Shown here: positions 2,578 to 36,126 of the stretch, in pieces
How the letters are laid out: each line of letters opens with the position of its first letter
Position numbering within the stretch: the stretch's first letter is position 1
Notes under the pieces: generated by a model
Told to the model about the DNA's origin: nothing
Database searches by the model: none
What the model saw: only the letters and a program-made list of their open reading frames with translations
Position numbers and translations under genes: made by a program
Source: a virus
Direction: 5' to 3' (one strand)
IMG/VR virus record: IMGVR_UViG_3300022689_000474
Location: 1-64,000 of that record
Length of the DNA: 64,000 nt

Positions 2578-4540
2578 TTTCCTTTAAGAAAGATTCCCAA
2601 GTTAAAGTTTTAATACCTCTATTAATACAAAGATTTACTTTTTTCATAGACGGTCTATCTCCTATTATCAAAGCATTTATTTCGTAATTAAATTTATCAA
2701 GTAATAAGAAATGATCAGGTAGTAAATTCTTTATTTTCTTCTTACTATAATCATTAATTTTACCAGTAATATAAATCTTAATACGATTATTACTTAAAGT
2801 TTTAGGAGTATTGAAATTAGAACAAATATCAAAGACCTTTTTTAAAGTAGATCTATTTTGTTTAATATTCAACCATTGTAATATTTTATTAGCATTTATA
2901 TCTCCTATACCTTCTATATAAATCAACTTATCATAATTAAGAGATAAGAAAGATTCTAAAGTATTTATCACTTTACATAAATTAATACTATTTCTTAATC
3001 CAACAGAAGGAATATTTAAACTATAAATAAATCTATATAACTCTTTATCTTTAGCTCTATTAATAGAAGAAATAATATTAGAGGCTGATTTTTCTTTTAT
3101 ATTATCTAGTTGTATTAATATAATCTTTTCTAAAAAGAATATATCTAAAGGATTTTTAATGAGATTATGATCTACAAGTTTATCAATTAAAGAGGGTCCT
3201 ATACCTTTAATATCTAAACAATCAGAAGAACATAACTTTATTATATTTTGTTTTAATATACAAGGACATGATGTATTAACACAATAAGTCCTTTTATCAG
3301 ATTCTCTTATTAATACTGAATTACATGAAGGACATAATTTAGGCCAAGAAACTTTATTTAAAGAAAAATCGGTTCTTGAATTAGCAATGACTTTAGGAAT
3401 AACATCACCTGCTTTCTTTACTTTTATAGAGTCTCCTATATAAAGATCTAGAGTATTGATAAAAGATTCATTATGTAAAGTAGCTCGAGATACTAAAGTG
3501 TTATTAAGTGATATAGGATCAAATAAAGCAACTGGAGTTATAACACCAGAAGGACCAACTTGGAATATAACATCATGTAATTTAGTATATTTATATTCTT
3601 CTATATATTTATAAGCTATTGCCCATTTTGGATACTTATGAGTAAATCCCAAAGCATTAACTATATCATTATCATTTATTTTTATAACTGCTCCATCAGT
3701 AAGATAATTAATAACGTTTCTTTGAGTTTCCCAATTATTAATATGATCAATAAGACTTTCAATATCATTACATAAATAAGTATTAGAACAGATATTAAAA
3801 CCTAAACAAGTAAGTAATTCTACTTTATCTGATTGAGATAGAGTTATAGCTTCATAAAGAACATCATATGGAAAGAAATGAAGACCTTTATCTTTTATCT
3901 TATTCTCATCTTTAGAGTTAAGAACACTAGAAGCTAAGTTCCTGGGATTAGAAAATAGAGATAAACCTTGAGACTCTCTTAAAGAGTTAATATGAGAAAA
4001 GATGTCTAAAGGTATATAGATCTCTCCTCTAATTTCGATATGTGATGGTAAATGAGAAGGATAGTTATATAAATATTTTGGTATAGAGGTATATTTAGAT
4101 ATAATATCTGTGATAATAACCCCTTTATATCCATCTCCTCTAGTTCTAACTTCTTTGAGATGACCATTTATATAATCAATAGAGATGGCAGCTCCATCAA
4201 TCTTAGGTTGAAATAAATAAGATATCTTCTTATTAGTAAATTTAGAGGAGAGAGATGATATCCATTTATTTAGTTCTTCTATAGAATGTACTTTATTAAG
4301 ACTATACATCTTATTTTTATGTAAAGAAAATCTATCTGATTCTTCACATTTATATCCTACTTTCTTAGTAGGAGAATTATCACAAATATAATCTGGATAA
4401 CTTCTTTCTAATTCTAATAATTCAGAATATAAAGAGTCATACTCTTCATCTTCTATTAATGGTTCTCCTTTATAGTATTCTGAGTTGGCAGTATTAAGAA
4501 AATTAACGAGATATAATATTCTATCTTGATATATATTCAT
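2558..4540 (-). CDS. ligA: NAD+-dependent DNA ligase
   Basis: KIDG adenylation motif, TRGDG, EIRGE, DGAVIK, WAIAYK, RATLHN, C4 zinc finger, HhH repeats, C-terminal BRCT-like domain. Confidence 0.97.
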   Translation of the reverse strand: MNIYQDRILYLVNFLNTANSEYYKGEPLIEDEEYDSLYSELLELERSYPDYICDNSPTKKVGYKCEESDRFSLHKNKMYSLNKVHSIEELNKWISSLSSKFTNKKISYLFQPKIDGAAISIDYINGHLKEVRTRGDGYKGVIITDIISKYTSIPKYLYNYPSHLPSHIEIRGEIYIPLDIFSHINSLRESQGLSLFSNPRNLASSVLNSKDENKIKDKGLHFFPYDVLYEAITLSQSDKVELLTCLGFNICSNTYLCNDIESLIDHINNWETQRNVINYLTDGAVIKINDNDIVNALGFTHKYPKWAIAYKYIEEYKYTKLHDVIFQVGPSGVITPVALFDPISLNNTLVSRATLHNESFINTLDLYIGDSIKVKKAGDVIPKVIANSRTDFSLNKVSWPKLCPSCNSVLIRESDKRTYCVNTSCPCILKQNIIKLCSSDCLDIKGIGPSLIDKLVDHNLIKNPLDIFFLEKIILIQLDNIKEKSASNIISSINRAKDKELYRFIYSLNIPSVGLRNSINLCKVINTLESFLSLNYDKLIYIEGIGDINANKILQWLNIKQNRSTLKKVFDICSNFNTPKTLSNNRIKIYITGKINDYSKKKIKNLLPDHFLLLDKFNYEINALIIGDRPSMKKVNLCINRGIKTLTWESFLKENAIILQ

Positions 4541-15619: not shown

Positions 15620-15982
15620 TTACGTATTTAATACTTCAGGAAGTGAATTAATAAAGGAATCGATATCAGGATACCATTCAGCAAAATGACCGTAAGGACC
15701 ATTCTTATTAGATATATTATTATTATATATACCTACTGTCTTCTTACCGTTCTCTAAGGAGAATCCTATCTCAATATTACTACCTCTACCTAGAGGAAAT
15801 ATAATTACATGTATATGACAATTTCTTATGGCTGATAAGGATTCCAAGCTTATTATATTATTATTTAATCTAGGTCTATTATGCCATATATAAGGTACAT
15901 TGTGACCTTTCTGTTGGATTTTTTTGATGGCTTCTGCAACGACCTCATTATTCTCACTATCACTACTTACAAATATATTCAT
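15620..15982 (-). CDS. nucleoside 2-deoxyribosyltransferase/N-glycosidase-like protein
   Basis: MNIFVSS start; AIRNCH..VII; GRGSNIEIGFS matches the G..xEiG catalytic Glu motif. Confidence 0.65.
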   Translation of the reverse strand: MNIFVSSDSENNEVVAEAIKKIQQKGHNVPYIWHNRPRLNNNIISLESLSAIRNCHIHVIIFPLGRGSNIEIGFSLENGKKTVGIYNNNISNKNGPYGHFAEWYPDIDSFINSLPEVLNT

Positions 15983-16005
15983 ATCAATTAACAATTATAT
16001 AACTT

Positions 16006-19000
16006 ATGTTCGGAATATTTAATAGAAATTCTAATCCTGATCCTAATAATTTAAATTCTCACTTATCTTCAAATATGGGAGTGGATAAAGGATTAGATCT
16101 AGGTTATATACAACATGGTACTGATACTGCTTTAAGAGGTGCAGTATTTTTTGATTACTTCTTTAATAATAACAGGAATATTAATGATTCTTATGATCCA
16201 TATGTAAATATAGGACATTCATTAAATAAAGAAGAAGTTCAAAGAATGCAGTATATGAAATATCACTCTAAAGATAGGACACAGAATCCTAATTTAGAGT
16301 TACAAGAACATGCTCGTATAGCTTTAGCTTCTAATGCTTTCACTTCATTTTCAGCTGATCTATATAATGTAACTCTAAGTGGTACTAAAGTAATCAATAG
16401 AGTCATAAATAAATCTACTCCCCAATATGATTTTTCATCTCTAAGTCCACTAGAAAGAGAAAGGAGAGAAAGAGAGGTAGATAAATATGCTGCTAGTAAT
16501 ATATATAGATATTTATTTGCACATGATACTTATGAGACTGCGGGTAAAAAGATATTTAAAAATTTAAATGTCATGGATCCTAAATTAATTGAACAAAGTA
16601 CTGAATATGGTACTGAGTATGATGGTATTTCTCAAGGTAGATGGTTAATAAATAATATCCTTAATGCAGAAGAACGTAGTAGTATTGCTAATGTTGCTAA
16701 AATACATCAGGAATTGATTTTATTAGATCCAGAAAGATTATCTAAAAGTAGAAAGGGAGTATATTCTAATCCTATAGAAGCTGTCAAACAAGTATCTGAT
16801 AGAATTATACAAGATAAAGAATATCTATCTAAACCGGGTATAAGACAAGCTGTAGCATTTATAGAAAGTGCAGAGAAAGAATTAACTATAGATCTATTCC
16901 AATTACAGAATAAAGCGATATCAGACGTATTGATAAATAAATTGACTAGAGAGAAAGATAGGATAGCTAAAGGAGATTTTAAGTTTAAAATAAGATTAGG
17001 AGCTCCTACTGGTGGAGATAGAGAAAACTTAATCGGTCATCATATATTAGGACCGAATATTATAATAATGCAAAGGTTAGGTAACCTTAGAGATGAGATA
17101 TTATTCGATCAATTGGGATATCGTTCCAGACCTAATAATAATATAAATGAAATAGTACCTTTCTTTAGTCAGGTAGATATGACTAGTAGTTATAATGAAT
17201 CTAAAAAGAATGAAGTAGATAAGATATTAAGTGATTCATTCTCTTTAGAATTTATGGATGATGGCATGTATCACCCTAAATTATTTACTAGTGATAAAGT
17301 GGCTATGGTCGGTTCATTTAACCTAACATCTCCAGTAGGTAGTTCTATATTTCAATCTGGTTCTAACTATGAAGAGATACAAGTATTAAGAAATAGATTG
17401 AATTTAGATTATGATAAGGCCGAACAAAAGGTTAATGATTATATGACAGACCCTTCAAAGGTTAATATACAGGATTTTGTTAATAGAGTAGCTAATAAAG
17501 AAAAGAAGTCTAGATATGGTAATAGAGGTCTGAATCCTCAAGAGAAAGAACTTCTGGATAAAGATACTGTGGAGACTATGTTATATCTTCAAGCTAGAAT
17601 ATTATCTAAAATGGGAGTACAAAGTCCTACAGGAGGAGGTAGTATAACAGGATTACAAATAGGTAAAGCGGGTGATATAGGTCAAGCTCTTAGAGCATCT
17701 ATTGGTTTTTTACAATCAGATAAGATTAGAGGAGATGGAAGGGTTTCAGAAATGTATATGAACTTGAACCAAGTCTGGTTACTTCAATTAGATAATGATC
17801 TTTTCTATGGTGCAGGAGGAGATTTTACTGGAGAATTTGGTCCTTCAGGTAAAGGTAGAGAGGAAGCTATAAAAGAATTGAAAAGATTGAGACCTCCTGT
17901 AGATGATTCAGGTATGGCATCTAGAAGATTTATATATAAAAGTGAAGTACAAAGTGGATTATTTGATTTAATACATCAAGGTAGAGCTTTTATTTCTGTG
18001 GATCAAAGGACTTATAGAGATAAGATATTGACACCTATGGAGGAAAAGGTCAATTATTTATTGGGAAGAAAAGAAATAGAAAGAAGGAGAAAAGAAGAAG
18101 GTTTTAGTTTATCTATTGATTCAATAAAAAGACAAGAAATAAGTGAAATAGGTAAAGGAGTATTATTGAGAGATTATGATGGTTCTATGGCTTATCTTGT
18201 ACGTAAAGCGGGTAATGATGATAATTTAAGAAGGACTTTAGGATTATCTAAACCTCAACAACCAGGAGATTTAGGATCTTATAACTACCAAAATAGTTCT
18301 ATGTTATTTGAAGGTAGAAAAGATTTATCTACTATGAATCATATTCATGAAACTAGTATCTTAAGAACTTTATCTCAATTAAAAGCTGTTACTAGTGGTC
18401 AGATAGTTCCAGTTACAGAAACGATGTCTCACGTTAAGAACTTTATGGTCATAGAAAGAAGTAGAGGACAGTCATATGATCCAGTGACTGGAGAAGGTAT
18501 AACACCATTATCTTATGTATCAGGTAGTAGTAACTTTGGTTCTTCTAGTTTAGCTTTTGAAGAAGGAGATAAAGATTATGTTAGTTCGGAATCTGGACTT
18601 ATACTCTTGGGAGATAAGATTCGAAATAGTAGGGATAGTAAAAAATATCTCTCTGATAAAGATAAGACTGCGGGTCTTAGTGATGAATATGAAGAATTAA
18701 TGTTGAAAGCTAGAGCTAAGTTTCCTATAAGAGAATGGAAAAGATTAACTAATGTAGAAATGGGTAATTTTGATTATACAGGTGCTACTCGTGAATCGGT
18801 CTGGAATGATAGAGTAAGTAGACAGGGACTTGAACAAGTAAAAAAAAGGATAGAAAGGATAAATGAAGATTTAGGTACTAATGCTATAAGTTTAATTCCT
18901 TCATATGATTCAAAAGGAGATTTAAGTTACTATACTATTAAATTTAGTAATAGTTCTGCTGTGGGGAGTTCATTTAATTCTATGTATATGGGATCTAGTA

Positions 19001-22000
19001 ATGAAATTAAATATAGGGTAACTGTCTTAAAAGATATTAAAGGTCAACCCGGTTTTGTATATATGATAGATCAGAATAAGGTATTGGGAAATACAAGATT
19101 AATGAATCAAACTGATGAAAGTGTATATGGATTACCTTATGCCTTAGAAGAAGGTCAGAAGTATAGAAGGATAGAAGCAGGAGAATCTTTAGAGTTAAAT
19201 CCTTTAGATACTTTTGCTAATTTGATGGGAACTCTTTTAGGTGAGAGTTCATTTAGAACTATGGTAGAGGAACCTATGAGATATATAAAAGTATTATCTG
19301 GATCTACTCTAAAGAGTAAATACTTATCCTCTTCTAATTATACTACAGCTTCTGTAGCTGGACTGGGATATTTAAGATTCCTTGGTACAGGTATAGCTTC
19401 TAATATTGAAGGTAAGAATTCAAAAGGTATATTTGAATTCTTTAATAAGTTAGATGCTAGGATGGCTCATGAAATAAGTAGAGAGTTTTACTCTAAACAT
19501 ATTAGTTTGACAGCTGAAGGAAGAAAAGGATTAGAAATGTCTGCAGGTCTATTTGACCCTACAGATATGAATAATTCAAGGACAGCAGAGAGACATTCAA
19601 TTATAAATGCCCTAAGTTCAATAGCAGTCTTAAATGAAAAGATACAAGAGGCTAAGAAGCATAATATCAGGGGTATAGGTAAAATTCAAAGTGAAAGGAA
19701 TCAACATATATCATTTATCCTTAATCAATTTGATAATATCTTAGGTAGACAAGAAAGGTCTACATTTGAATCAGATATAAGTTTGGGAGTTATTGAATCT
19801 TTAAGAGATATTACTTATTATCAAGGAAGAGATAATAATATAAAACAAATAAAACAATCTATATTTGAGCCTTTTATCTCTTTAGGACAGGCTTCTATAT
19901 ATGCCAATTCACAAGCTTGGTATAAAAATCCTATTTTTGCTTTAAGTCCATATTCAATAGAATATTTTAAAGAGGGTACTAATATTTCTGAGAATCCCTC
20001 TATGAATAATATAATGAGATATGCTTTGGCTAGTCCTTATTCATACTCATCTACAGATCCAACTGGAAAAGGTACTGAAGGATTTATAAGATCAGTTGCT
20101 GAAGGAGGAGGAGGAAAGACAACTGAAGAAGAAGGATATTCTTTATTTGGAGATATGAAGACTACATTTGGAGATATAACTTCTATAGATATCTTAAAGT
20201 ATACTGGTACAGGTAATATAGTTAAGAGAAGTGAATATGAAAATACAGTTATAAAGAAACTATATTTAGAATATCAAGCAACAGTATCTAATGGAATTAT
20301 AAATATATCTTTAGAAGATTTTACTCAACAGCTACAATCTGATAATCCTATGGGTGCATTACAACCCTATAAAGATATATTTAAGCGTCTTATACAAGAT
20401 ACTCCCTTCAAAGATGAATCAATAGATAGAGCATTAGTATTTAACTTCAATGTACCAAAGAAAGCAAGTCAGATACCTCAAAGATTGAAGAATGTATTAG
20501 GATCTAAACCAATGTACGAAATGGATAGTGGATTTAGTATTCTGTTGAGGAAGAAAGGAGTATTAACTTCTACAGAGATGAAATATTTTAAGAAGTTCTT
20601 AGAACAGAAACATAGATTAAATAGGACTAAACTACAAGAAAGTATTAAAAAGATAAATAAGTTAAGTAAATCTTCTTATAGTCTATCTCCAGATCAGTAT
20701 TTAGAAGCGATAATAGTTAGTAGACAGGTAGAACTAATGAAGGCGAGGATAAATAATAATAACACTAATATATTAACTCATTCTAAAAATACTAAAAGGA
20801 TAATAAGTAATGTATTGTCACTTATAGAAGAAGATTTATTTAATACGGGAATAGATAGTTTTGTTAGGAAAGCTGAAGAATTGATATGGAATGATAAGTC
20901 TAATTCAAAGACGAAAGAGAGAGAAAAAATAAAGGCTTTAGAATTTATAAAAGAAGCTTATCAAGATGTAAACCAATTAGTAGGTGAATCTAGTAAAGTA
21001 TCAATAATTAATGATAGTGATCTGAGGAATTATATGACTTCAGATCAACATGAAATAGTGGAAGGTCTAAAAGATAACTTATCGGAGATATATGGTTTTG
21101 ATAGAGATGAATATATGGATCATGGATCTTTAGCTAGAGCTTCATTATTAAATATTTTAAAAATGAATGATTCTTTAGCTTCTGGTATTAAAGGATTTAC
21201 TACAGGTAGAACTACTGTTAAAGGAAAGAAGAGTGTTATATTAGTCCAACTCTCAGGAGGTTTTTCTGATTATGGTTTTACTAATCCATTATATGGAAGT
21301 GATATAAACTTTCTTAAGGAAGCTAGGAAAAAGATGAAGAATGAAACCTATAAGAACCCTTTAACAAATAAGGAAATTGAACTTACTGATTGGTCTAATC
21401 TTTCTAGAGAAGATAAGATGAAGTTGGGTATGATGTCTGGATTTTTAGAGAAAGCTGAAAAAAGACAGAAATCTTCTATGTTAGTAGAAGATTGGTTTAT
21501 TCAAGGTAATAGGGTAGCTAGAAAAGGAGATATAGTGACTTATGATAATGAATCTAATAGAGTATTGGTATGGGGAGATAAAAGAGATATTTATAACTCT
21601 ATGATACCTTTAGATAAGATAGATATGGAAAAGATATCAAGAGCGGATAGAGAGAATCTTAAAAAGGCGGCGATAGGAGATGCTAAAGCAGCATATTACT
21701 TTAGAGAAGATGTGGATTCAAGGGACCAAGCATCTGCAATAGCAGGAACTATAGATAACTTTAGAGTTATAGATGATTTACCTACAGTGTCATTATTAGA
21801 AAGACAAGCTTGGCATAGGAATTCAGAAGAGAGTTATGAATATTTAATATCAGCTAAACAGTTATCAGGGGTGGCAGATACAAATCAGTTAATTTGGGAA
21901 TTTACATATAATAGATCAATAATGATGGGAGGGGGAAGAAGAGGAGAAGGTACTTCCTCTTTAGTAAAAGCTGTAAATGTATTCTTACAACCTAATATAT

Positions 22001-25000
22001 TTGAAAGATTAGCAGCTTCTTTAAATGAATTTGGAGGGGGGACTCTTAAAGCTGATCCATTATCTATAGAAAATATAATGGGTTTATATAGTCCTACTAA
22101 CTTTAAAAGTTATGCATACTCACATGGTGCGGAGATTTTATCTAATAAAGAATTAAGAGAGAACTTCATGGCCCAATTAGGAGTAAGAAATAAAAGAGGA
22201 GTAAATGAAATAAGTAGTAAACAATTAGGGGCGTTAATGCTACTTACATTTGGAGATACCTATTTAGAGGATAGTAGTAAAAAGAATATATATTCAGACT
22301 TCTTTGGTAGTGCATTATCAGGGGAGTTAGGAGAGTGGATGAAAGGATTAGCTCTCAGTTCAGTATTATCTACAGGAAAAGATATAACTTTAAATCAGAA
22401 TGAGATATCAAGATTAATGAGTGGTGCATTATTAAATGATGATTCTGACTTAAAGAAGTTAATGGTAAGTAATTTCCAATCTATGGTAAGTAAGAAGAGT
22501 AAAGATTTATTTGGTTCAATGCAACTACCATCTATAGATATGATAGATAGTAAAAAGTTTGAACTGTCATTTACTCAAGGTGGAGATTATATGAAGAAAT
22601 TCTTATCTAGACAGTTAGGTGCAATGGCTGATCTTGATAGAGATTATATACTAGGGGATGTGATGGAAGAAAGGATGGCTTCTATTATGGTAGGTAATTT
22701 AGAATTAATGTCTCAACTTATAGCTCAAGATACTTCTACAGTAGTACCTACAGATATAAATGTAGAAGATAATAAAACTTTAATCAAATTATTATCTATA
22801 AGTGGATATCAAGATATTGGTAGAATTCAAGATATAACTATAAGAATGGATAATAATTTACAAGTTCAACGAGAGGAGAGAGAGTATGTAGATAGTATGA
22901 GAGAGATATTAAAAGGTCTTACTAATACATCAAATATTGTTAGATTATATGGATCTGTTTTACCATCTGCTAGTAAAGAAGCGGTAGGTAGTAAGTTAAC
23001 TGGAGCTCTTGAATTCCAACATATGGTTAAACCTTTATATCAATTCTCTTCATCCTTTACTAATAAAGGAGAATTATCTGATTTAAGGAAAGTATTAGGT
23101 AATGTATTATCTACCATATCTCAGACAGAAAGTATGATTACTGGTGAAGCTATTCTTAGAAGGAATGATTTATTAACGGGTAGACCAGTAGATATAAGTG
23201 ATATGAACTCTTTATCTTCATTAGATCGTCATAAATTTATAGGAATAAATACTGCTTATGATCCAGAAAGTATAAAACAGTTAAGAGAATTAAAGAGGGA
23301 TTATAGAGATTATGAAGAAGGAATTAAATATATAATTGCTGATAAAGTAAAACAATTAAATAACTTACAAGGAGATTCATCTTTAAATAGATTAAAGAGA
23401 TTGGAATTAACTTCAGAGATATCAGATCTAATGACATTACAACCTGATTTCCTATATGAAGGTAGAGCTGGATATATGGATGAAGAAATAGAATATCTTA
23501 CAGTGAAATGGGATAAATCTCAGAAAGATGGTGAAGTGAGAATGAGAAGAGGAACTCAAACGAAAAGGATAAAAAGTATAGTTAGGAGTTATATGAAAAG
23601 TAATAAAGGTAAAAAGATATATAGTAGAAAAGGTACAGAACTAAATATCCTTGAATCTTTAGAAGCTGTTTCAGGTAGGATGGCTATTGATATAGGTAGG
23701 GTTCAACAGGCTTTAAATCCAGATACTCCATTTGGTATGGGGACAATTCAACCAGTATTAGAAGGTTTAGATTATAGATCATTTTCTTTCAGTCTTCCTA
23801 GTTTTATGGTAGAAGGTCAAGATGAATCAGGAGGGGTCTCTTTATCTTTTGATTATTCAGATAAAGCTAAAAGATATAGTTACTTAATGGGTGCTTCTGA
23901 ATTGCAATTATTAGGAGATCAATATGGTTCATATGTAGAAGAACTTACTGCAAAAACTATTTATCTTGCTAGTGCTTTTGCTCCTGGTAGTAATTTGTCC
24001 ATAATTATGGATAAAATAAAAAGAAGTAAGTTATCTGGTGATTCTAGAGTCTCACTTACTAAAGAAGAATATACTCTATGGCAAAGGTATTATGAAACTG
24101 CTGTAGGGAATAGGGGTATAGTTCCTTTATTAGCTGAAGCATCCGCTAATGTAAGATCTCAACAAGTAATGGCAGGTAAAATAAGATTAGCTGGTATAGT
24201 TACAACTCCTGCGGCATCATTCTTAGTAAACCCAGGAGATATATTATTAGCACAGGAAGGAGAAAGAAGACAAATACATATGTCAGAGAATCGATATACA
24301 TTGTATAGAGAAGCTATAAGTAAAGAAGCTCAATTTCAAAGAATAATGTCAGATGAAAATGAATTGGCTAAATATGGTAGAGGTTCTATAAGTAGAGTTA
24401 TAGATTATTATTCATCTTTACAAAGTGCAATGTTATATGGATTATCAGAACCTGCAACTTTAAACTTATCTAAGTTCTCAGATGAATTCACCAAATTGAA
24501 TGAAAAGATAGATAAATATAGTAATAAAGATTTTGATAAAGTAGCAGAGCATCTTTCTAATCAAATAGCAAGATTAAATGATATGGATCTATCTTTAATA
24601 TCTCCAGAAGAAGGAAAGGGAGATTCATATTTAAAGAACTTACAAGAAGTATCTTCTATTTATTTAAGAAGAAAGTTAGAGAGAAAGTTATTCTCTTCTA
24701 CTACAAATATTACTTCTAAACAGAAAGTAGGTTTAATTAGAGGTATAAAAGCTTTAGAAAGTCAAGTATTAGAAACTACTTCTAAAGAAGTAGAGAATTA
24801 TATAAGTTTAAAGAAATTAGGTTTGGCTGATGCTATAGAAGGTATACAAAATGTATTTCAAGGAACTAGTCAAGTTTCTCAATATGCAGTATCTAAATTA
24901 GAGATGTTAGATAGACTTAAAAGAGGTGTATTTAGTGATAAATCTGTAAGAAGAGTAATTAATCCAGATGGTTCTATAAGGGAATCAATGAATATAGATA

Positions 25001-28000
25001 CACTTAACTTTAAAGTAGAAGAAGGATTAGCTAGATCAGTATCTTCCGAAAAGTTATTACAGGATATAAAGGGGATGTATGATGTATTATATACTACTGA
25101 TTTATATGATAAACAAAATAGAATATCTTCACAATATAGTAGTAACTTAAATAGTAAAAATCTAAGTATTTTACAAAGTACATCTAAGTCAATAACGGAA
25201 TTAAGAGATACAAATAAGAATAATCTTAGAATTAACTCATCTACACTTAATGATTATCAAAAAGGTTTAGCAAGTATATCTCTTGAAGTGGCAGAGATAA
25301 TGAATGAAGATATTAATTATTTACTTACTGGTAAAAAGACTAATTCTAGTAATGATCTAATTAGTAGATTGGAAAATAGATTAAAACAATATGGTACTTA
25401 TCAAAAAGGTACTACTGAGAGAACGATATATGATACCATGTTGAAGAAAGTAGTAGAAGATATAGAAGATAAAAGAAAGAATTCTGAAGTCTTTGGTATG
25501 GGAGAAGTTACTGATCTTATTAGTAAGAATATTAATAAAGAGATAGGAAGGATTAGTAGAGAGGTGTCTTCTAAAAGATATTTATTAAAAGAGGGAAGAG
25601 AATTAGAACAAAAAGTAAAAAATAATGAAGATGTTAATTGGAATCAATTTACTGAATTTCTACAAGCTCTTGAGAAGAATAAATATACAGATCCTGAAAT
25701 AACAGAATTATATAATTCTCTAAAGAGTCAGGTTAGATCTGTATTAACAGCGGGTAGAAGATTTTTAGAAGACCCTTTATCTAAATTATTAAAAGATATA
25801 CCTACATTAGCAACTGGAGTATTAGGAGGTAGAGATAAATTTGCTATAAGTGAATTTGAATTAGAAGGAAAGTTAAGAAAGAGAGTATCTCCATTCAAGA
25901 TAGATAAAGAATTATTAAGGGATTCAGCTAGATATACAGATGAAGATATATCTTTCCTTACTTTCTACACTAAAGAAGTATTCAATCAATTTGAGACGGT
26001 AAATGAACATTTAAGACAAGTAAGTGAAGGAACTCATAAAGCAACAGATACATATACAAGTATGGTATCTGAAAAGAGTAGAGATTCTTTCTTAAAGTTA
26101 ACTAAGTCCGTAGAAGCAATATCTAATACTTTGGAAGAATTACAAAGTAGTAGACAAATAAATGTAACTGACGATAGGTTAAAAGATATTTTATCTGTAT
26201 ATACTGCGGAGATTCCTGGTATGGAATCATCATCAGTAGAGATAAATAAACGTTTAGGTAAAGCTAGAGATTTGTTAACAGGTAATAGAAAGGGTAATAC
26301 TGTTGATGCATATGGTTTAGTTAATGTATTCCAAGAGATATTAAATACTTATGATAATACGGATGCAATGAGAGTATTAGGTTTTAGATCTCCACCTCCT
26401 GGAGGTAATGAACCTCAAAGATATACTTTAGAAGTATTAAAAGATATAAGTCTTATAAATGAATATTCAAGAGCGGTAAATCCTCAAGGAGGTGTTGAAT
26501 ATGATCAAGGAAGAAATAAGACATTAACTTTATTAAATCCCATATCGTTATTGACTATGAGTTTAGGAGATTTTGATGGAGATCCATATACAACGATATA
26601 TAGTAACTTTATGGATTTACATAGAGAAGTATATAATACAGAAGTTAAAGTAAAGTTCAAAGAAGAAATCCAATTAAAGAAGATAGAAAGTTTAATATCT
26701 AGGAAATCAGCAATATCTGGTTTATCTTTAAATGAGAATGATATAAAAGATTATATATCAAATAATCAATCTACTCTAGAAGAAGAAGATAATACTTTAT
26801 TAAATGAATGGTTAAGTAAGAAAGCAGAAATAGCTAGCCATAGAAAAGATATATCAGTTACTAATTTGAAGATAACTGCTATGAACCGTGAGTTAGAGAA
26901 TAGTAATTTTAATAAAGCATTAAGAAGAGAGATATCTAATTATATAGGTGTAAATCAAAAACATTTCTTATCTGTAGATAATGGCGGATATAGAGATGTA
27001 GATATAAGTACAGATGTAGCCTTAACATTTATAGAACAAGGTAGAGGGTTATTTGGAGGTTTAGAAGAAAAAGCTCCTGAAGCTGTAAGAGTAAATGATA
27101 CATTAAAATCTATATTCAAATTATATCCAAATAATAATGTAAGTGTACCAAATAGACCCAATCCTTCAACAGGAACTTATGATATAGAAGCATTTAGAAA
27201 GATAATAGAATCCTCGGACAATAATGAAATACTAACTACTTTAAGAGATAAGATAACTAATTCTTTATATGCTAGTAATAATAATCAAAATAATGGAGCT
27301 TTATATTCATTATTACTATTAAGTCAGGAATCTTTACAATCTCAAATGAATCAAGCAGGGTCTACTGCTTCTAATAATTCTCTAGATCCCTTAATTAGAG
27401 AATTAAGAGAATCTAGGAATTTCTTACAGAATGAAGGGAAGGTATCAACTGGTACATTAAATGACAAGGATATAGAAGAGATTCTTGCTTATACCTCAGC
27501 TAGAGCTATGACTCAGGCATCTAGTTTAGGTGGACTTAAAGGAATGTTGGCCCAATCAACAGGTACAAGTATGGACTTTCAGACAAGTGATATGATGGTT
27601 TTAACAATGGGTAAAGCCGGTTCAGATGTATTAGGTAAGATATATAATACATTTATTGGAGCAATATATAGGGATAGTCCTCTAATAGCTACAAGTCATG
27701 TAATGACTCAAGGAGGTTTCTTAGAGAGTATAAGAAATAATCAACAAATGAGAGATACTATAGCTTTAGAAGGTTTAACAGTAGATGATTTTGTATCTGA
27801 ATTAAAGAGTTCTCAAGAAACAACTGAATCGCTACATGGTTTCATAAAAGATATAAATCAATTATTAAGGGATGGAATTAAACCGAAAGGGGGTCAAGAT
27901 CTATTAGAAAACTTAAAGAAACAGGCTGCGGTATATGAAACATTACAAGATCCTGCTGATAAGGAAGCATTAATAACCAAGATAGCATCATCTTTTGGTC

Positions 28001-30522
28001 CATCAGGATCTGAGATGGGATTATTTGCATTAATGGAATTATCTAGTTTAGAGGCAAAAAGAGAAGAATTATTAAGTTCTAATATGAATAGTACTTTAAG
28101 GATTAAGGAAATAGAGTCGGGAATAGGTCAAGGGGTAAGTACTAATATAGTAAGTTTTGATAATAAAGATTATCAAATAGAAAATAATTTCTATGCTATA
28201 AATTATGGAGATCCTTACTCTTCAGCATTTAGAGATAAGAATTCAGTATCAAGGAGTTTAAGAGAAGACTTTGGTTTATCTTCAGAACAATTTAATAGAT
28301 TAGCAGTAGAGATTCATAAAAATACTAAAAGAGAAAGTGTAAATGCATTTGAGATAGCTTCTTTAAAAGCAACTAGAGATCTACAATCTTTAATAATAAG
28401 TTATCAATATCATAATTTAATGGAAGGGTCATTAACTGAAGAATCAGTTTCAGCTGGAGGATCTCAAGTATTAGAATCTACTTATGGAAGATATTTACAA
28501 GAAGGAAGAAATATAACTGATCCAAATGCTCTCAAGAGTGGAATCAATTCATTTAGGAATAGATCTTTATCTATAAACGAGATGGATGATTTTGATAATT
28601 GGATAAAAGGGAAGATATCTTCTGATTCTCGTATAAGTTATATAGGTAGTACTATATTAGGAGTTAGTGAGGAAGAGTTTAATACTAATTTTATCAATGG
28701 TACGGATAAACATTTAATGAAGAATAGAGCAGCTTTCCTAGCTGTAGCAGAACAAGGACTTACAGCTACAAGTGGAATGTTAGGGAATTATGGTGAAGGT
28801 ATGGAAAGATTTACATCATTTGAGACTGCTAGGAAAAAAACAGGTATGTTATTAGCTGGTTCTTCAGAGCATATGCCAGACGAAGTTTTAGGATCTGATT
28901 TATGGATGACCGTAATGAACTTAATGTCTTCTGATAAGTTAAAACCCCATGCAGCTTCAGCCGCTTTTAGAATTATAGCCGAGGCAGATAGTTTATTTTC
29001 TACTGATTCAGATGCTTTAGTAACTCTTATATCAGGTATAGATGAAAATGATAATGTAATATATAACCAAGGTACTGATACTTTTACTCAAAAAGGTCCT
29101 AATAGTAAACAGAGGAAGTTTAGGAAAGCAATGAGAGCCTTATTAACAAATAATAACTTAAGTTCTATAGAAGTAGAAGGAACAGTATTTGAATCAGATG
29201 GAGAAAAGAATGCAGTATTTAATTATTTAAATACAATGATTGAAGAGTCGGCTACTAGTATGAGGAATAAAGCTTTAGAAGAATTTATACAAAGATCAAC
29301 AGGTAGATCAGATCTTATATTTGGAGACCCTTCAGAAATAATAAATAAAGTTATAGATGATACTAAAGTAACTCCAGAACAAAAGAAGGAATTAGAAGAT
29401 CAATTATCAATGTCTTTAGAGGAATTAAAATATGAAAGAATAAAGAATCATATCGGTGGAATAGATCCTTTAGGTAAACCTATGACACCCCGTAATATAA
29501 ATATGGAGATAAGTAAAAGGTTGACTCTTGAAAGTATGAGTAAAGCTCAAGAGAACTCCAATAAGGTGGCATCAATGCATGATATGATATTACCGGGTTT
29601 ATTAAGTGTTGTAGGTGGAGCTATATTAGGAGGTAGATTAGATGAAGAAGTAGTTGGAGATATAGTTGGAGGTACAATAATGTCTATGGCTTATATGAAA
29701 CAAAGTCGTATATTTCAACCAGTAGAAGATAGACCTGATGGTTCATATCCAAGGAATTCTAGTTCTAGACAGGGTATCAATAATACAAGGGGGATTTTAT
29801 CTACATTAAAGAATAAAGGGACAGGTATAACTAAGAATTTAGCCAATATAGGTGTAGGAGCATTAAGTGCGGGTACATTTAAGATAGATATGGCATTGAT
29901 GCAACATGAAGGAGATCATGGAGATGCTATGGCCTATTTAATAGGGACAGAATTAGGATTTGCAGTAGGATCAAATTTAGTTAGTCCTTTAGTTGAAGGT
30001 GCGGCTACTAAATTAAGTACAGCACATCTAGATGCTCTTCACTCAAGAGCTAGAAATTATGAAGCGGCTAGATTAACCTCTGGTCAAAGAACAGAATATT
30101 TATTAAAAGGAACAGCTGGTGTATTAGATGAAGATCAATTTGCTGGAGTAAAATCTTCATTCTCAACAGTAGGTGGAGCTATATTATCTGGATTGTTAGG
30201 TATAGCTTCTGCAAAACTTGGTGGATCAGTAGCTGTTGATTTACTTAATTCAAATGGAGATTTCTCTGAAATAGCCTTAGTGGAGGGTCTAATGAATGCA
30301 GTAGATATGAATAAATATAAGGCAGAAAAAGAAGCTTTCTTAAGACAAGATTCACCTGATGTTACAGATGAATTTGGATATCCAGTTGATCAATACTTAA
30401 GTAAAGTTGATCTAATGGAAGATTACTCTGGAGATGCTATATCTCCTGATTCCCCAATACCAATAGAATATCTATTAGATCAAGAAGCTGCAATGAATGG
30501 ACAGACTTTATTCTATGGATGA
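16006..30522 (+). CDS. giant 4838-aa protein: tandem PLD domains + single-chain two-barrel RNA polymerase + Gly/Ala-rich hydrophobic C-terminus (candidate virion RNAP)
   Basis: HPKLFTSD..GSFN (17272-17322); HVK..GSSN (18430-18534); MAGKIRLAG (about 24170); GFRSPP (R at 26386); LLNP..LGDFDGDP (DFDGD at 26569-26583). Confidence 0.75.
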   Translation: MFGIFNRNSNPDPNNLNSHLSSNMGVDKGLDLGYIQHGTDTALRGAVFFDYFFNNNRNINDSYDPYVNIGHSLNKEEVQRMQYMKYHSKDRTQNPNLELQEHARIALASNAFTSFSADLYNVTLSGTKVINRVINKSTPQYDFSSLSPLERERREREVDKYAASNIYRYLFAHDTYETAGKKIFKNLNVMDPKLIEQSTEYGTEYDGISQGRWLINNILNAEERSSIANVAKIHQELILLDPERLSKSRKGVYSNPIEAVKQVSDRIIQDKEYLSKPGIRQAVAFIESAEKELTIDLFQLQNKAISDVLINKLTREKDRIAKGDFKFKIRLGAPTGGDRENLIGHHILGPNIIIMQRLGNLRDEILFDQLGYRSRPNNNINEIVPFFSQVDMTSSYNESKKNEVDKILSDSFSLEFMDDGMYHPKLFTSDKVAMVGSFNLTSPVGSSIFQSGSNYEEIQVLRNRLNLDYDKAEQKVNDYMTDPSKVNIQDFVNRVANKEKKSRYGNRGLNPQEKELLDKDTVETMLYLQARILSKMGVQSPTGGGSITGLQIGKAGDIGQALRASIGFLQSDKIRGDGRVSEMYMNLNQVWLLQLDNDLFYGAGGDFTGEFGPSGKGREEAIKELKRLRPPVDDSGMASRRFIYKSEVQSGLFDLIHQGRAFISVDQRTYRDKILTPMEEKVNYLLGRKEIERRRKEEGFSLSIDSIKRQEISEIGKGVLLRDYDGSMAYLVRKAGNDDNLRRTLGLSKPQQPGDLGSYNYQNSSMLFEGRKDLSTMNHIHETSILRTLSQLKAVTSGQIVPVTETMSHVKNFMVIERSRGQSYDPVTGEGITPLSYVSGSSNFGSSSLAFEEGDKDYVSSESGLILLGDKIRNSRDSKKYLSDKDKTAGLSDEYEELMLKARAKFPIREWKRLTNVEMGNFDYTGATRESVWNDRVSRQGLEQVKKRIERINEDLGTNAISLIPSYDSKGDLSYYTIKFSNSSAVGSSFNSMYMGSSNEIKYRVTVLKDIKGQPGFVYMIDQNKVLGNTRLMNQTDESVYGLPYALEEGQKYRRIEAGESLELNPLDTFANLMGTLLGESSFRTMVEEPMRYIKVLSGSTLKSKYLSSSNYTTASVAGLGYLRFLGTGIASNIEGKNSKGIFEFFNKLDARMAHEISREFYSKHISLTAEGRKGLEMSAGLFDPTDMNNSRTAERHSIINALSSIAVLNEKIQEAKKHNIRGIGKIQSERNQHISFILNQFDNILGRQERSTFESDISLGVIESLRDITYYQGRDNNIKQIKQSIFEPFISLGQASIYANSQAWYKNPIFALSPYSIEYFKEGTNISENPSMNNIMRYALASPYSYSSTDPTGKGTEGFIRSVAEGGGGKTTEEEGYSLFGDMKTTFGDITSIDILKYTGTGNIVKRSEYENTVIKKLYLEYQATVSNGIINISLEDFTQQLQSDNPMGALQPYKDIFKRLIQDTPFKDESIDRALVFNFNVPKKASQIPQRLKNVLGSKPMYEMDSGFSILLRKKGVLTSTEMKYFKKFLEQKHRLNRTKLQESIKKINKLSKSSYSLSPDQYLEAIIVSRQVELMKARINNNNTNILTHSKNTKRIISNVLSLIEEDLFNTGIDSFVRKAEELIWNDKSNSKTKEREKIKALEFIKEAYQDVNQLVGESSKVSIINDSDLRNYMTSDQHEIVEGLKDNLSEIYGFDRDEYMDHGSLARASLLNILKMNDSLASGIKGFTTGRTTVKGKKSVILVQLSGGFSDYGFTNPLYGSDINFLKEARKKMKNETYKNPLTNKEIELTDWSNLSREDKMKLGMMSGFLEKAEKRQKSSMLVEDWFIQGNRVARKGDIVTYDNESNRVLVWGDKRDIYNSMIPLDKIDMEKISRADRENLKKAAIGDAKAAYYFREDVDSRDQASAIAGTIDNFRVIDDLPTVSLLERQAWHRNSEESYEYLISAKQLSGVADTNQLIWEFTYNRSIMMGGGRRGEGTSSLVKAVNVFLQPNIFERLAASLNEFGGGTLKADPLSIENIMGLYSPTNFKSYAYSHGAEILSNKELRENFMAQLGVRNKRGVNEISSKQLGALMLLTFGDTYLEDSSKKNIYSDFFGSALSGELGEWMKGLALSSVLSTGKDITLNQNEISRLMSGALLNDDSDLKKLMVSNFQSMVSKKSKDLFGSMQLPSIDMIDSKKFELSFTQGGDYMKKFLSRQLGAMADLDRDYILGDVMEERMASIMVGNLELMSQLIAQDTSTVVPTDINVEDNKTLIKLLSISGYQDIGRIQDITIRMDNNLQVQREEREYVDSMREILKGLTNTSNIVRLYGSVLPSASKEAVGSKLTGALEFQHMVKPLYQFSSSFTNKGELSDLRKVLGNVLSTISQTESMITGEAILRRNDLLTGRPVDISDMNSLSSLDRHKFIGINTAYDPESIKQLRELKRDYRDYEEGIKYIIADKVKQLNNLQGDSSLNRLKRLELTSEISDLMTLQPDFLYEGRAGYMDEEIEYLTVKWDKSQKDGEVRMRRGTQTKRIKSIVRSYMKSNKGKKIYSRKGTELNILESLEAVSGRMAIDIGRVQQALNPDTPFGMGTIQPVLEGLDYRSFSFSLPSFMVEGQDESGGVSLSFDYSDKAKRYSYLMGASELQLLGDQYGSYVEELTAKTIYLASAFAPGSNLSIIMDKIKRSKLSGDSRVSLTKEEYTLWQRYYETAVGNRGIVPLLAEASANVRSQQVMAGKIRLAGIVTTPAASFLVNPGDILLAQEGERRQIHMSENRYTLYREAISKEAQFQRIMSDENELAKYGRGSISRVIDYYSSLQSAMLYGLSEPATLNLSKFSDEFTKLNEKIDKYSNKDFDKVAEHLSNQIARLNDMDLSLISPEEGKGDSYLKNLQEVSSIYLRRKLERKLFSSTTNITSKQKVGLIRGIKALESQVLETTSKEVENYISLKKLGLADAIEGIQNVFQGTSQVSQYAVSKLEMLDRLKRGVFSDKSVRRVINPDGSIRESMNIDTLNFKVEEGLARSVSSEKLLQDIKGMYDVLYTTDLYDKQNRISSQYSSNLNSKNLSILQSTSKSITELRDTNKNNLRINSSTLNDYQKGLASISLEVAEIMNEDINYLLTGKKTNSSNDLISRLENRLKQYGTYQKGTTERTIYDTMLKKVVEDIEDKRKNSEVFGMGEVTDLISKNINKEIGRISREVSSKRYLLKEGRELEQKVKNNEDVNWNQFTEFLQALEKNKYTDPEITELYNSLKSQVRSVLTAGRRFLEDPLSKLLKDIPTLATGVLGGRDKFAISEFELEGKLRKRVSPFKIDKELLRDSARYTDEDISFLTFYTKEVFNQFETVNEHLRQVSEGTHKATDTYTSMVSEKSRDSFLKLTKSVEAISNTLEELQSSRQINVTDDRLKDILSVYTAEIPGMESSSVEINKRLGKARDLLTGNRKGNTVDAYGLVNVFQEILNTYDNTDAMRVLGFRSPPPGGNEPQRYTLEVLKDISLINEYSRAVNPQGGVEYDQGRNKTLTLLNPISLLTMSLGDFDGDPYTTIYSNFMDLHREVYNTEVKVKFKEEIQLKKIESLISRKSAISGLSLNENDIKDYISNNQSTLEEEDNTLLNEWLSKKAEIASHRKDISVTNLKITAMNRELENSNFNKALRREISNYIGVNQKHFLSVDNGGYRDVDISTDVALTFIEQGRGLFGGLEEKAPEAVRVNDTLKSIFKLYPNNNVSVPNRPNPSTGTYDIEAFRKIIESSDNNEILTTLRDKITNSLYASNNNQNNGALYSLLLLSQESLQSQMNQAGSTASNNSLDPLIRELRESRNFLQNEGKVSTGTLNDKDIEEILAYTSARAMTQASSLGGLKGMLAQSTGTSMDFQTSDMMVLTMGKAGSDVLGKIYNTFIGAIYRDSPLIATSHVMTQGGFLESIRNNQQMRDTIALEGLTVDDFVSELKSSQETTESLHGFIKDINQLLRDGIKPKGGQDLLENLKKQAAVYETLQDPADKEALITKIASSFGPSGSEMGLFALMELSSLEAKREELLSSNMNSTLRIKEIESGIGQGVSTNIVSFDNKDYQIENNFYAINYGDPYSSAFRDKNSVSRSLREDFGLSSEQFNRLAVEIHKNTKRESVNAFEIASLKATRDLQSLIISYQYHNLMEGSLTEESVSAGGSQVLESTYGRYLQEGRNITDPNALKSGINSFRNRSLSINEMDDFDNWIKGKISSDSRISYIGSTILGVSEEEFNTNFINGTDKHLMKNRAAFLAVAEQGLTATSGMLGNYGEGMERFTSFETARKKTGMLLAGSSEHMPDEVLGSDLWMTVMNLMSSDKLKPHAASAAFRIIAEADSLFSTDSDALVTLISGIDENDNVIYNQGTDTFTQKGPNSKQRKFRKAMRALLTNNNLSSIEVEGTVFESDGEKNAVFNYLNTMIEESATSMRNKALEEFIQRSTGRSDLIFGDPSEIINKVIDDTKVTPEQKKELEDQLSMSLEELKYERIKNHIGGIDPLGKPMTPRNINMEISKRLTLESMSKAQENSNKVASMHDMILPGLLSVVGGAILGGRLDEEVVGDIVGGTIMSMAYMKQSRIFQPVEDRPDGSYPRNSSSRQGINNTRGILSTLKNKGTGITKNLANIGVGALSAGTFKIDMALMQHEGDHGDAMAYLIGTELGFAVGSNLVSPLVEGAATKLSTAHLDALHSRARNYEAARLTSGQRTEYLLKGTAGVLDEDQFAGVKSSFSTVGGAILSGLLGIASAKLGGSVAVDLLNSNGDFSEIALVEGLMNAVDMNKYKAEKEAFLRQDSPDVTDEFGYPVDQYLSKVDLMEDYSGDAISPDSPIPIEYLLDQEAAMNGQTLFYG

Positions 30523-34629: not shown

Positions 34630-34969
34630 AAATTTCTTCTGTCTTATTTATAAAATCTTTCATTTTTTTATCTAATTTTAATTCCTTAGATAAAGAGTAT
34701 TTTACTCTTTTATTACTATTATGATTGGTTTTTAAAGATGGGTATTTAACTTTTAAGTAATTATCTAAAAGAATATATAATCCTTTTAATAATACTTCTT
34801 TCTCTGAGCATTGAAATTCTTCTGCTAATTTATCAATTACGAGTCTTTCTTTCTGTTGTAAACTAAGAATTATTTTTTCTTTATCTTTCTTTATTCTATA
34901 TTTATATATATTATCAATATAACTCTTATCATTATAAAATTTACTAAATTTTCTTATTTGTCTTTTCAT
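34604..34969 (-). CDS. putative ribbon-helix-helix DNA-binding protein
   Basis: IILSLQQKERLVIDKLAEEFQCSEKEVLLKGL has a CopG-like pattern. Confidence 0.5.
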   Translation of the reverse strand: MKRQIRKFSKFYNDKSYIDNIYKYRIKKDKEKIILSLQQKERLVIDKLAEEFQCSEKEVLLKGLYILLDNYLKVKYPSLKTNHNSNKRVKYSLSKELKLDKKMKDFINKTEEISIPLEFLL

Positions 34970-36126
34970 ATAATATTACTCTTAGATAAATAATTTATCA
35001 TATCCATATGATTATCATTTAATACTTTATAATTTATATTTCGTAATTCTAATTGGAATTTATAAACATTTCCATTTTTATCTTTTATCTCTTTCTTTCC
35101 TAATTCACTATTAGGTTTAATATAAACTCTTATAGAAGGTTCTTGACCTCTTTGTATTATTTGTTCTTTACCTTTTATGAGTTCCATCAAAGATATCCTT
35201 ATAATACCTAAATCTTCTATTTTCTTTTTGTTTCTAGGTTTCTTCTTAGTATATTCTTCCTTTCTTTTATCATTATCTTTATAAGAAGCATCGGAATATG
35301 GGATAATTCTTATCACTAAATCTCCTGAGATGAAAAAGCCTTTATCTAGAGGGTTTAATTGAACTTCATCTCCTTTTCCTGGTAAAGTGATAAAGAAATC
35401 TTCCGATATATTAGTAGGCACTCTAACTCTTACATAAGTATTTATATTAATATATCCTTTACCAACACATTTACTACATATACTTGGAGAATCTATTACT
35501 CCTTGTCCTCCACAATATTTACAATTAACTATGACATGATTTGTAGGCGTTCTATCAATACCTGAACCTCCACATTTATCACACGTTTTACTTTCTTTAC
35601 CAGTACCAGAACATGAGGGACAGATGGTTCTCTTGATATAATATATCTGTTTATTAATAAATTGAGTATTTCTACCTTTATTTATATCTTCTTTAGTAAG
35701 TCTATAGTCTATATATTTATTAGGACCTTTTGCCTGATATTGAAAATCAAATGTGGTATTAAAATTATTATTCCTTCTACTATTAGTATATATCTCTTCC
35801 CAAAGAGTTTGACCAGTAGAAACGTCATATCCATGATTAGAGTTATAAGAGGTTTTATAACTTTTCTTCTTATTAGTAGTTTTGTAATAAGGATTATTTT
35901 TAGTATATTGATTAGATGAAGATGTTTGAGATTGAGTATATATCCCCTTATCTCTACATTCAATAATAAAGTTATAAGCTTCATTAATCATCGTGAATTT
36001 TTCTTTACCTTGTGGATTAATATCAGGATGATAAGTTTTAGCTAGTTTTCTATAAACTTTTTTTATTTCTTCAGTAGAAGTATTTGGATCTACTTTTAAT
36101 CTATTATAAGATTCTTCTAAATTCAT
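34966..36126 (-). CDS. dnaJ: DnaJ-type co-chaperone
   Basis: J domain with HPD; four CxxCxGxG repeats; GKGD..GDLVI C-terminal domain. Confidence 0.92.
   Translation of the reverse strand: MNLEESYNRLKVDPNTSTEEIKKVYRKLAKTYHPDINPQGKEKFTMINEAYNFIIECRDKGIYTQSQTSSSNQYTKNNPYYKTTNKKKSYKTSYNSNHGYDVSTGQTLWEEIYTNSRRNNNFNTTFDFQYQAKGPNKYIDYRLTKEDINKGRNTQFINKQIYYIKRTICPSCSGTGKESKTCDKCGGSGIDRTPTNHVIVNCKYCGGQGVIDSPSICSKCVGKGYININTYVRVRVPTNISEDFFITLPGKGDEVQLNPLDKGFFISGDLVIRIIPYSDASYKDNDKRKEEYTKKKPRNKKKIEDLGIIRISLMELIKGKEQIIQRGQEPSIRVYIKPNSELGKKEIKDKNGNVYKFQLELRNINYKVLNDNHMDMINYLSKSNII

Follow-up and report, generated by a model that had tools for sequence, protein, structure and literature searches.

A bilobed phospholipase D-superfamily domain predicted in the N-proximal part of a giant protein of Ma-LMM01-like cyanomyophages

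Is the N-proximal part of the giant protein encoded in this viral DNA a genuine domain of the phospholipase D (PLD) superfamily and, if so, what might such a domain do near the front of a chain of 4,838 residues? The question is raised by positions 1 to 64,000 of the IMG/VR virus record IMGVR_UViG_3300022689_000474, a stretch of 64,000 nucleotides that was analysed as a whole and is called the window below. A preliminary description of this DNA had proposed two PLD-type sites (HKD sites, each with an HxK triplet) in tandem ahead of a polymerase. The elements on which that proposal was built, namely the string FIESAEKELTIDLFQLQN and the motifs at H423 and H809, were all found in the 4,838-aa translation where they had been placed, and the motifs together with the predicted fold confirm that residues ~275-870 are a real bilobed domain of the PLD (HKD) superfamily. 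The best explanation, which we regard as likely, is one bilobed PLD catalytic domain to which both lobes supply catalytic residues and which has been fixed in a family of giant proteins. The gene and the parts of the PLD module are listed here.

16006 to 30522, plus strand: giant open reading frame (ORF) P0001, 4,838 aa, which translates without a stop; homologue of Ma-LMM01 gp080, PHROG 31006
16828 to 17400, plus strand: PLD lobe 1, residues ~275-465, with six strands in the AlphaFold2 model; supported also by superposition on Nuc and by PLDc_2 matches
17272 to 17373, plus strand: HKD motif 1, H423-x-K425-x4-D430-x5-G436-S437-x-N439...E456, from the sequence and a 43-row alignment
17410 to 17658, plus strand: helical linker between the lobes, residues ~469-551, with three helices, from DSSP of the model and the alignment
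17659 to 18621, plus strand: PLD lobe 2, residues ~552-872, with seven strands in the AlphaFold2 model; supported also by superposition on bilobed PLD enzymes
18004 to 18390, plus strand: helical insertion within lobe 2, residues ~667-795, from the AlphaFold2 model; its length differs between homologues
18430 to 18591, plus strand: HKD-variant motif 2, H809-x-K811, a variable loop and G840-S841-S842-N843...E862, from the sequence and a 42-row alignment

The segment 16830-18610, which had been singled out initially, corresponds to residues 275-869 of the giant protein. In this segment, FIESAEKELTIDLFQLQN represents residues 285-302 and includes the conserved first strand of lobe 1, T-I-D-L-F-Q-L-Q-N (residues 293-302), while a conserved strand of lobe 2, L-N-Q-V-W-L-L-Q, is formed by residues 587-594. 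Motif 1 reads H423-P-K425-LFTS-D430-KVAMV-G436-S-F-N439 and is followed by S-G-S-N454-Y-E456-E457. Motif 2 reads H809-V-K811...G-S-S-N843. Both of the proposed HKD sites are therefore present and, as described below, conserved, but the second departs from the canonical form in that the position five residues after the Lys is Ile816 instead of Asp and in that a variable insert of 12-28 residues separates HxK from GSSN. There are five HxK triplets in the whole giant protein, and only two of them (H423 and H809) are followed by G-[ST]-x-N; when the giant protein was shuffled 2,000 times, two such HxK..G[ST]xN patterns appeared in 0.15% of the shuffles.

Homologues were collected by a word-indexed search limited to giant proteins, which gave 15, and by an exhaustive phmmer search of 1.84 billion representatives, which gave 39; all of the latter have 3,500-5,400 aa or are obvious contig fragments, and no free-standing PLD relative was found in that exhaustive search. 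In an alignment of 43 sequences with a mean column identity of 16%, the HxK triplet is conserved in 43/43 sequences for motif 1 and in 42/42 for motif 2, the single row without the motif region of lobe 2 being a 769-aa fragment. Namely, H423, K425, N439, G452, and E456 are invariant (43/43), position 430 is Asp or Glu in 42/43 homologues, position 437 is Ser or Thr in 43/43, and each of the 42 sequences extending into the region of motif 2 has H809, K811, N843, and E862. As a guard against circularity, a second homologue set was gathered via the C-terminal region (residues 3420-4120), and both motifs were again found in each of its N-terminally complete members. Every N-terminally complete member of the family carries the PLD module, which is a fixed N-proximal part of this family of giant proteins (3.5-5.4 thousand aa) of Ma-LMM01-like cyanomyophages.

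Two observations on individual relatives may be recorded here. In L010:8251-16223, a Ma-LMM01-like metagenomic contig (IMGVR_UViG_3300005044_000116), a net 76-nt deletion right after the PLD module shifts the reading frame, so that the module stands as a separate ORF of 646 aa and a second ORF holds the remaining protein including the DFDGD block discussed later; the split, which may reflect either a genuine two-gene arrangement or faulty assembly, shows where the module ends on its C-terminal side. Also, the homologue P0009 (NCBI V6O07_00580, partial, Arthrospira platensis SPKY2) has 63-67% identity and is encoded in an Arthrospira platensis assembly, on a contig of 9.6 kb. It is the next closest relative after P0002 and the fragment P0016 and the closest with a source name, which hints at a culture of filamentous cyanobacteria as habitat; the G+C content of the phage, 25-30%, is far under that of Arthrospira platensis.

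An AlphaFold2 model of residues 251-900, built from a 20-row alignment, has a bilobed PLD fold with a mean predicted local distance difference test (pLDDT) value of 76 and a predicted template modelling (pTM) score of 0.81. The HxK triplet is placed identically in the two lobes, in the order of strand, HxK, strand, strand, and GSxN. When the model was searched against the PDB with Foldseek, the top matches were PLD-family proteins only (best E 4e-3). Re-alignment of the Foldseek shortlist with VIA-align gave Z of 14.3 for F13 (274 aa, root-mean-square deviation (rmsd) 3.5), 13.2 for E. coli PssA, 12.9 for the PLD 7e0m, ~12 for PLD4/PLD3, and 11.9 for PPK1, and the bilobed matches of this shortlist all span model residues ~26-650, that is, both lobes. 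Lobe 1 alone was superposed on Nuc (1byr) with Z 11.2 over 131/152 residues and rmsd 2.7. An exhaustive VIA-align search of 48,161 chains gave the same picture: the top 25 rows were all of the PLD superfamily (Z of 14.3 for F13, 12.7 for PssA, 12.2 for PLD4, and 11.1 for Nuc), and the first unrelated fold appeared at Z 6.4. In the ESM Atlas, 10/10 of the nearest set-representative clusters among the matches listed were PLD clusters, and the best match in BFVD was a fragment of Ma-LMM01 gp080 (E 2e-22). The expectation that a PLD fold would be predicted was thus borne out for both lobes.

Sequence profiles gave a more restricted answer. PLDc_2 of Pfam matches 8/12 family members, and the relatives P0049 (30.4 bits) and P0052 (33.9 bits) exceed its cut-off, with alignments that cover positions 1-121 of the 132 in the profile; a PF13091 label had been precomputed for six relatives. 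Several results, on the other hand, count against a bilobed PLD domain. The giant protein itself scores 21.8-25.2 bits with PLDc_2 and does not reach the gathering cut-off of 27. The PLDc_2 matches all fall in lobe 1, and lobe 2 was detected by none of the Pfam, NCBIfam, and PDB profiles; because no sequence hidden Markov model recognises lobe 2, its assignment draws on the predicted fold and the motif. Furthermore, when the profiles of the two lobes were compared by hhalign, neither the global nor the local mode gave a significant result (E 0.18-0.33), so that an internal duplication is not shown by sequence; the best local alignment brings the two HxK motifs into register. A phmmer search of residues 251-900 against the PDB returned zero matches at E<=10, and a profile of 12 family members returned sub-significant PDB matches only (E 0.35-0.55), which are confined to the HxK..GSxN stretch. 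The sub-threshold Pfam score and the empty PDB sequence search would be expected if the two HxK motifs were a chance resemblance in a protein with no PLD domain; this idea is refuted by the conservation, the predicted fold, the shuffle test, and the Pfam passes in relatives, and we give it a negligible chance of being right.

Are the two lobes, then, parts of one active site? One composite pocket is implied because both lobes superpose globally on bilobed PLD enzymes (274-300 residues, rmsd 3.4-3.8 A), with a pTM of 0.81 and with identical placement of the motifs. In the model, we infer, H423 and H809 would share this pocket. Each lobe would contribute a His-Lys-Ser-Asn-Glu set, namely H423/K425/S437/N439/E456 and H809/K811/S842/N843/E862, and the lobes would be related by a pseudo-twofold axis, the arrangement known from PLD3/4, F13/K4, PssA, and the Nuc dimer. 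The same set of residues is said to form the active site of Nuc, as reported by Stuckey and Dixon in 1999. From established PLD chemistry, one His would be expected to attack the phosphodiester and form a phospho-histidine intermediate, and the other to protonate the leaving group. If the giant protein is packaged in the virion, the enzyme would then reach the next host.

A conserved fold may also have lost its chemistry, and some PLD-fold proteins are indeed non-catalytic (FAM83 and the C-terminal domains of PPK), which weakens the case for an active enzyme. The PLD fold here could thus be a silent scaffold or binding module for assembly or packaging of the giant protein, like FAM83, TrmB, and the C-terminal domains of PPK1; such non-enzymatic folds are among the structural matches (Z of 9.9-10.2 for FAM83B, 6.4-7.9 for TrmB, and 11.4-12.0 for PPK1), and lobe 2 has no motif Asp and contains large insertions. 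FAM83, TrmB, and the PPK1 C-terminal domains, however, have lost the His/Lys/Asn set, whereas H, K, N, and E of both lobes are invariant in 42-43 sequences despite the mean column identity of 16%, so that we consider a silent scaffold quite improbable. An active phosphodiesterase is the best reading because such a conservation pattern is the product of selection on catalysis; the module occupies a fixed, N-proximal place in the family, from which we conclude that selection keeps it as an active enzyme. As judged from conservation and the predicted fold, the PLD domain is probably an active phosphodiesterase.

What the phosphodiesterase would act on is a harder question, and the fold does not answer it, because lipid enzymes and nucleases both score Z 12-14; this point, and the sub-threshold scores of the nuclease-family models given next, tell against a confident choice of nucleic acid. 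The weak sequence matches lean slightly toward nucleic acid: the NCBIfam model DpdK matches 7/12 family members (best E 5.8e-5) and NucT 2/12, all under their curated cut-offs, and the top PDB profile matches, themselves sub-significant (E 0.35-0.5), are the poxvirus virion nicking-joining enzyme and PLD4. The net charge and isoelectric point (pI) of the module (pI 5.0-8.5 among members) are uninformative on substrate. Alternatively, an ejected giant protein might carry at its front a phospholipase or transphosphatidylase directed at the membrane, which would convert phospholipid of the inner membrane to phosphatidic acid or remodel the bilayer and thereby let the hydrophobic C-terminal segments open an entry channel for DNA. 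The best structural matches (Z 12.7-14.3) include phosphatidylserine synthase, bacterial PLD, and F13, cardiolipin synthase A is among the ESM Atlas neighbours, and the C-terminal end of the giant protein is closed by Gly/Ala-rich hydrophobic segments resembling those of ejection and tape-measure proteins. Fold similarity, however, does not indicate substrate, and the NCBIfam models of cardiolipin and phosphatidylserine synthases match none of the 12 members at E<=1, whereas DpdK and NucT do match. Cyanobacterial membranes are, moreover, mostly glycolipid with phosphatidylglycerol as the sole major phospholipid; the cyanobacterial hosts of the relatives thus have low-phospholipid membranes, which is a weak pointer to nucleic acid. 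We place membrane phospholipid second among the substrate classes, at clearly less than even odds.

The preliminary description had further suggested that the domain might degrade host DNA. In infection by the relative Ma-LMM01, 0.17% of host genes change in transcription, host transcripts are otherwise unchanged to 6 h, and host RNA still makes up 67% of the total at 6 h (PMC5780444). Because host transcription stays so stable, bulk destruction of host DNA looks unlikely, and by analogy with Ma-LMM01 an aggressive injected nuclease would be disfavoured here as well, which is a further difficulty for a nuclease of that kind. We thus prefer, at somewhat short of even chances, a nucleic-acid substrate on which the PLD domain performs limited nicking, end-processing, or RNA-processing of phage or host nucleic acid and not bulk degradation of host DNA. 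The gp080 gene of Ma-LMM01 has a sigma-70-like promoter of its own and belongs to the "middle" class, with transcription from 3 h onward (PMC5780444 supplement); this timing fits a protein made for the progeny virion and falls short of proving packaging.

Does a polymerase follow the PLD domain, as had been proposed? The claim is based on the following block in the C-terminal third of the giant protein.

26386 to 26583, plus strand: proposed beta'-like catalytic barrel block, R3461-S-P-P-x-G...R-N-K-x-L...G-D3522-F-D-G-D3526, an invariant motif

In the block F-R-S-P-P-x-G...R-N-K-x-L...G-D-F-D-G-D, the residues R, P, G, D, D, G, and D are invariant among homologues, with DYDGD in two loci, and the block resembles the catalytic barrel of beta'. 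A two-barrel RNA polymerase would also have a second, beta-like barrel with conserved Lys residues; conserved blocks such as K-x-S-Q-I-P-Q-R-L-K-N and G-G-G-R-R-x-E lie upstream. What speaks for the proposed polymerase is the invariant DFDGD block; tests with Pfam, PDB profiles, and E. coli beta' gave it no support. Namely, none of the four quarters of the giant protein gave a Pfam match to RNA polymerase (RNAP) at E<=1; phmmer and profile searches of the putative RNAP region against the PDB returned no RNAP and only coiled-coil noise; and PF00623, which was found in 14/14 control genomes, was absent from a search of the whole phage genome. The family profile found nothing at E<=10 among the 544-2000-aa proteins of a 5.8-billion set, and against E. 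coli beta' it aligned the 10-residue motif only, with 3.1 bits, a result no better than that of shuffles, 5/1,000 of which scored higher. An AlphaFold2 model of residues 3420-4120 (pLDDT 55, pTM 0.30, with the barrel region below 50) was too poor for structure search, and a language-model look-up gave one weak lead, clusters of PF05183, RNA-dependent RNA polymerase (score 0.89). RNAP membership may hold all the same, because the two-barrel RNAPs already known from phages likewise escape searches of this kind. According to phage papers, Ma-LMM01-like phages have no RNA polymerase (PMC9927357), and all Ma-LMM01 promoters look sigma-70-like (PMC5780444). From the motif, we would still place the odds that the C-terminal third is an RNA polymerase modestly above even.

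Right after DFDGD, residues ~3530-3650 (26590-26950) are predicted as a long helical hairpin, with pLDDT of 75-89 at residues 120-210 of the AlphaFold2 model; the sequence of this segment is poorly conserved among homologues, and its PDB profile search found coiled coils only.

In the most far-reaching combination, the Ma-LMM01-like cyanomyophages, a widespread lineage, would package one giant protein that is both an active PLD phosphodiesterase and an extremely divergent single-chain two-barrel RNA polymerase. As a whole this seems improbable to us. In this combination, the PLD domain would act on nucleic acid at the site of entry by nicking or end-processing the incoming genome, by trimming transcripts, or by destroying a nucleic-acid signal of host defence, and the protein would be, if the combination is true, the first nuclease-RNAP ejection enzyme of a contractile-tailed phage.

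The genome in which the giant gene resides is a 152-kb IMG/VR virus record that is classed as provirus, is 82% complete, and has a G+C content of 23-35%. Its head and sheath proteins share PHROG families with those of the Microcystis phage Ma-LMM01. Upstream of the giant gene, the minus strand encodes an NAD-dependent ligase, a Dda-like helicase, and NrdD, all within the window; genes for portal, major head protein, tail sheath, and baseplate lie downstream in the window. The PHROG 31006 match covers the giant protein end to end, and its relatives in the phage collection are only Ma-LMM01 gp080 (3,562 aa, "hypothetical protein") and the MaMV orthologues. The G+C content is 0.29-0.31 and the GC skew +0.25 to +0.31 in the giant gene (16006-30522); in the neighbouring genes on the minus strand, the G+C content is 0.23-0.25 and the skew negative. 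Only 11 bp seem to separate the giant gene from a divergent upstream ORF with a TTG start (15620-15994), and because this distance is so short, the start codon of either may be miscalled.

Some other genes in the window deserve mention. A 692-aa protein encoded in the tail and baseplate block (60716-62794, plus strand) resembles an endolysin in its N-terminal part and matches tape-measure PHROGs in a C-terminal stretch, has a part of the M23 metallopeptidase type as well, and is likely a tail-associated cell-wall-degrading protein; after the sheath and tube genes, no obvious tape-measure gene was seen in the window. On the minus strand, the C-terminal 160 residues of a 496-aa protein (36162-37652) match several PHROGs of unknown function, and its 386-aa neighbour (34966-36126) matches phrog_14336.

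Giant phage proteins are mostly unannotated, and the PLD module provides an enzymatic handle on one of them, with two catalytic histidines within ~460-600 residues. If the protein is ejected with the DNA, a phosphodiesterase would be added to the enzymes of phage entry, which include lysozymes, peptidases, ADP-ribosyltransferases, and RNA polymerases. Members of the family are found in phages that infect bloom-forming Microcystis. The early phase of infection by these phages lacks an explanation: host transcription is untouched and a phage RNAP is unrecognised; the PLD module and the DFDGD block both bear directly on this question. Should the module prove to be no more than a nuclease of the ordinary kind, its recognition would still be a useful annotation for ~40 clusters of hypothetical giant proteins.

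How new, then, is this arrangement? Giant protein P0001 resembles N4 vRNAP, gp66 of the crAss-like phage phi14:2, and the tape-measure-fused RNAP of P23-45 in that all of them are very large phage proteins; the RNAPs of crAss-like phages and P23-45 carry a DxDxD-type motif (bioRxiv 10.1101/2020.03.07.982082; PMC10770324), and a PLD module is not mentioned in PMC10770324. A full-text literature search for virion RNA polymerase together with phospholipase D returned nothing relevant, and in the literature no PLD module was found reported in phage virion RNAPs, polyvalent proteins, jumbo-phage surveys, or ejection proteins. The preliminary description knew of no characterised RNAP with such a fusion, and our full-text search found no paper that describes or tests the PLD domain of gp080. 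The presence of PLD as such, however, is already flagged by UniProt, which automatically names gp080 "PLD phosphodiesterase domain-containing protein", and by Pfam labels precomputed for some metagenomic relatives; in GenBank, gp080 is hypothetical.

The closest known counterparts are accordingly Ma-LMM01 gp080 itself (YP_851094; UniProt A0A7J4) and its orthologues in MaMV-DC/DH01/CH/DL, which are true homologues over the full length (PHROG 31006). As in the giant protein of the window, the PLD module with both HxK motifs is followed by the DFDGD block, and the two giant genes each lie opposite in strand to their immediate flanking genes; the flanks of gp080 include the virion genes for a tail protein, the major head protein, and the tail sheath. 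The PLD regions, however, share only ~28% identity, gp080 is shorter (3,562 aa versus 4,838 aa), and its PLD module is more compact (457 aa versus 601 aa), with a far shorter inter-lobe linker in the Ma-LMM01-type proteins and with most of the linker and insertion missing; the G+C content of Ma-LMM01 is 45%, compared with 25-30% here.

Outside this family, Nuc of Salmonella (1byr/1bys) and NucT of H. pylori (6ehi) are PLD nucleases with a single HKD motif that work as homodimers. Lobe 1 covers 131/152 residues of Nuc (rmsd 2.7, 19% identity, Z 11.1-11.2) and shares its His-Lys-Ser-Asn-Glu set, and NucT and DpdK are the best NCBIfam sequence matches of the family. Here, in contrast, a single chain would take the place of the dimer: its two lobes have diverged strongly, it has a helical linker of 80 residues and a helical insertion of 130 residues, the module sits inside a giant protein, and the sequence scores are all under the family cut-offs. 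The best structural matches of the whole module are the bilobed PLDs, poxvirus F13/K4 and the mammalian 5'-exonucleases PLD3/PLD4 (Z of 14.3 for F13 and 12.2-12.3 for PLD4, with 270-280 aligned residues over both lobes), and K4, the poxvirus nicking-joining enzyme, is a PLD nuclease packaged together with an RNA polymerase in the same virion. These proteins differ from the present module in that the sequence similarity is not significant and in that they stand alone, have lengths of 350-490 aa, and come from eukaryotes or poxviruses; F13, in addition, is a membrane protein whose motif is degenerate. Compared with all these systems, the PLD domain described here is a very divergent branch of the superfamily that is known only within these giant proteins.

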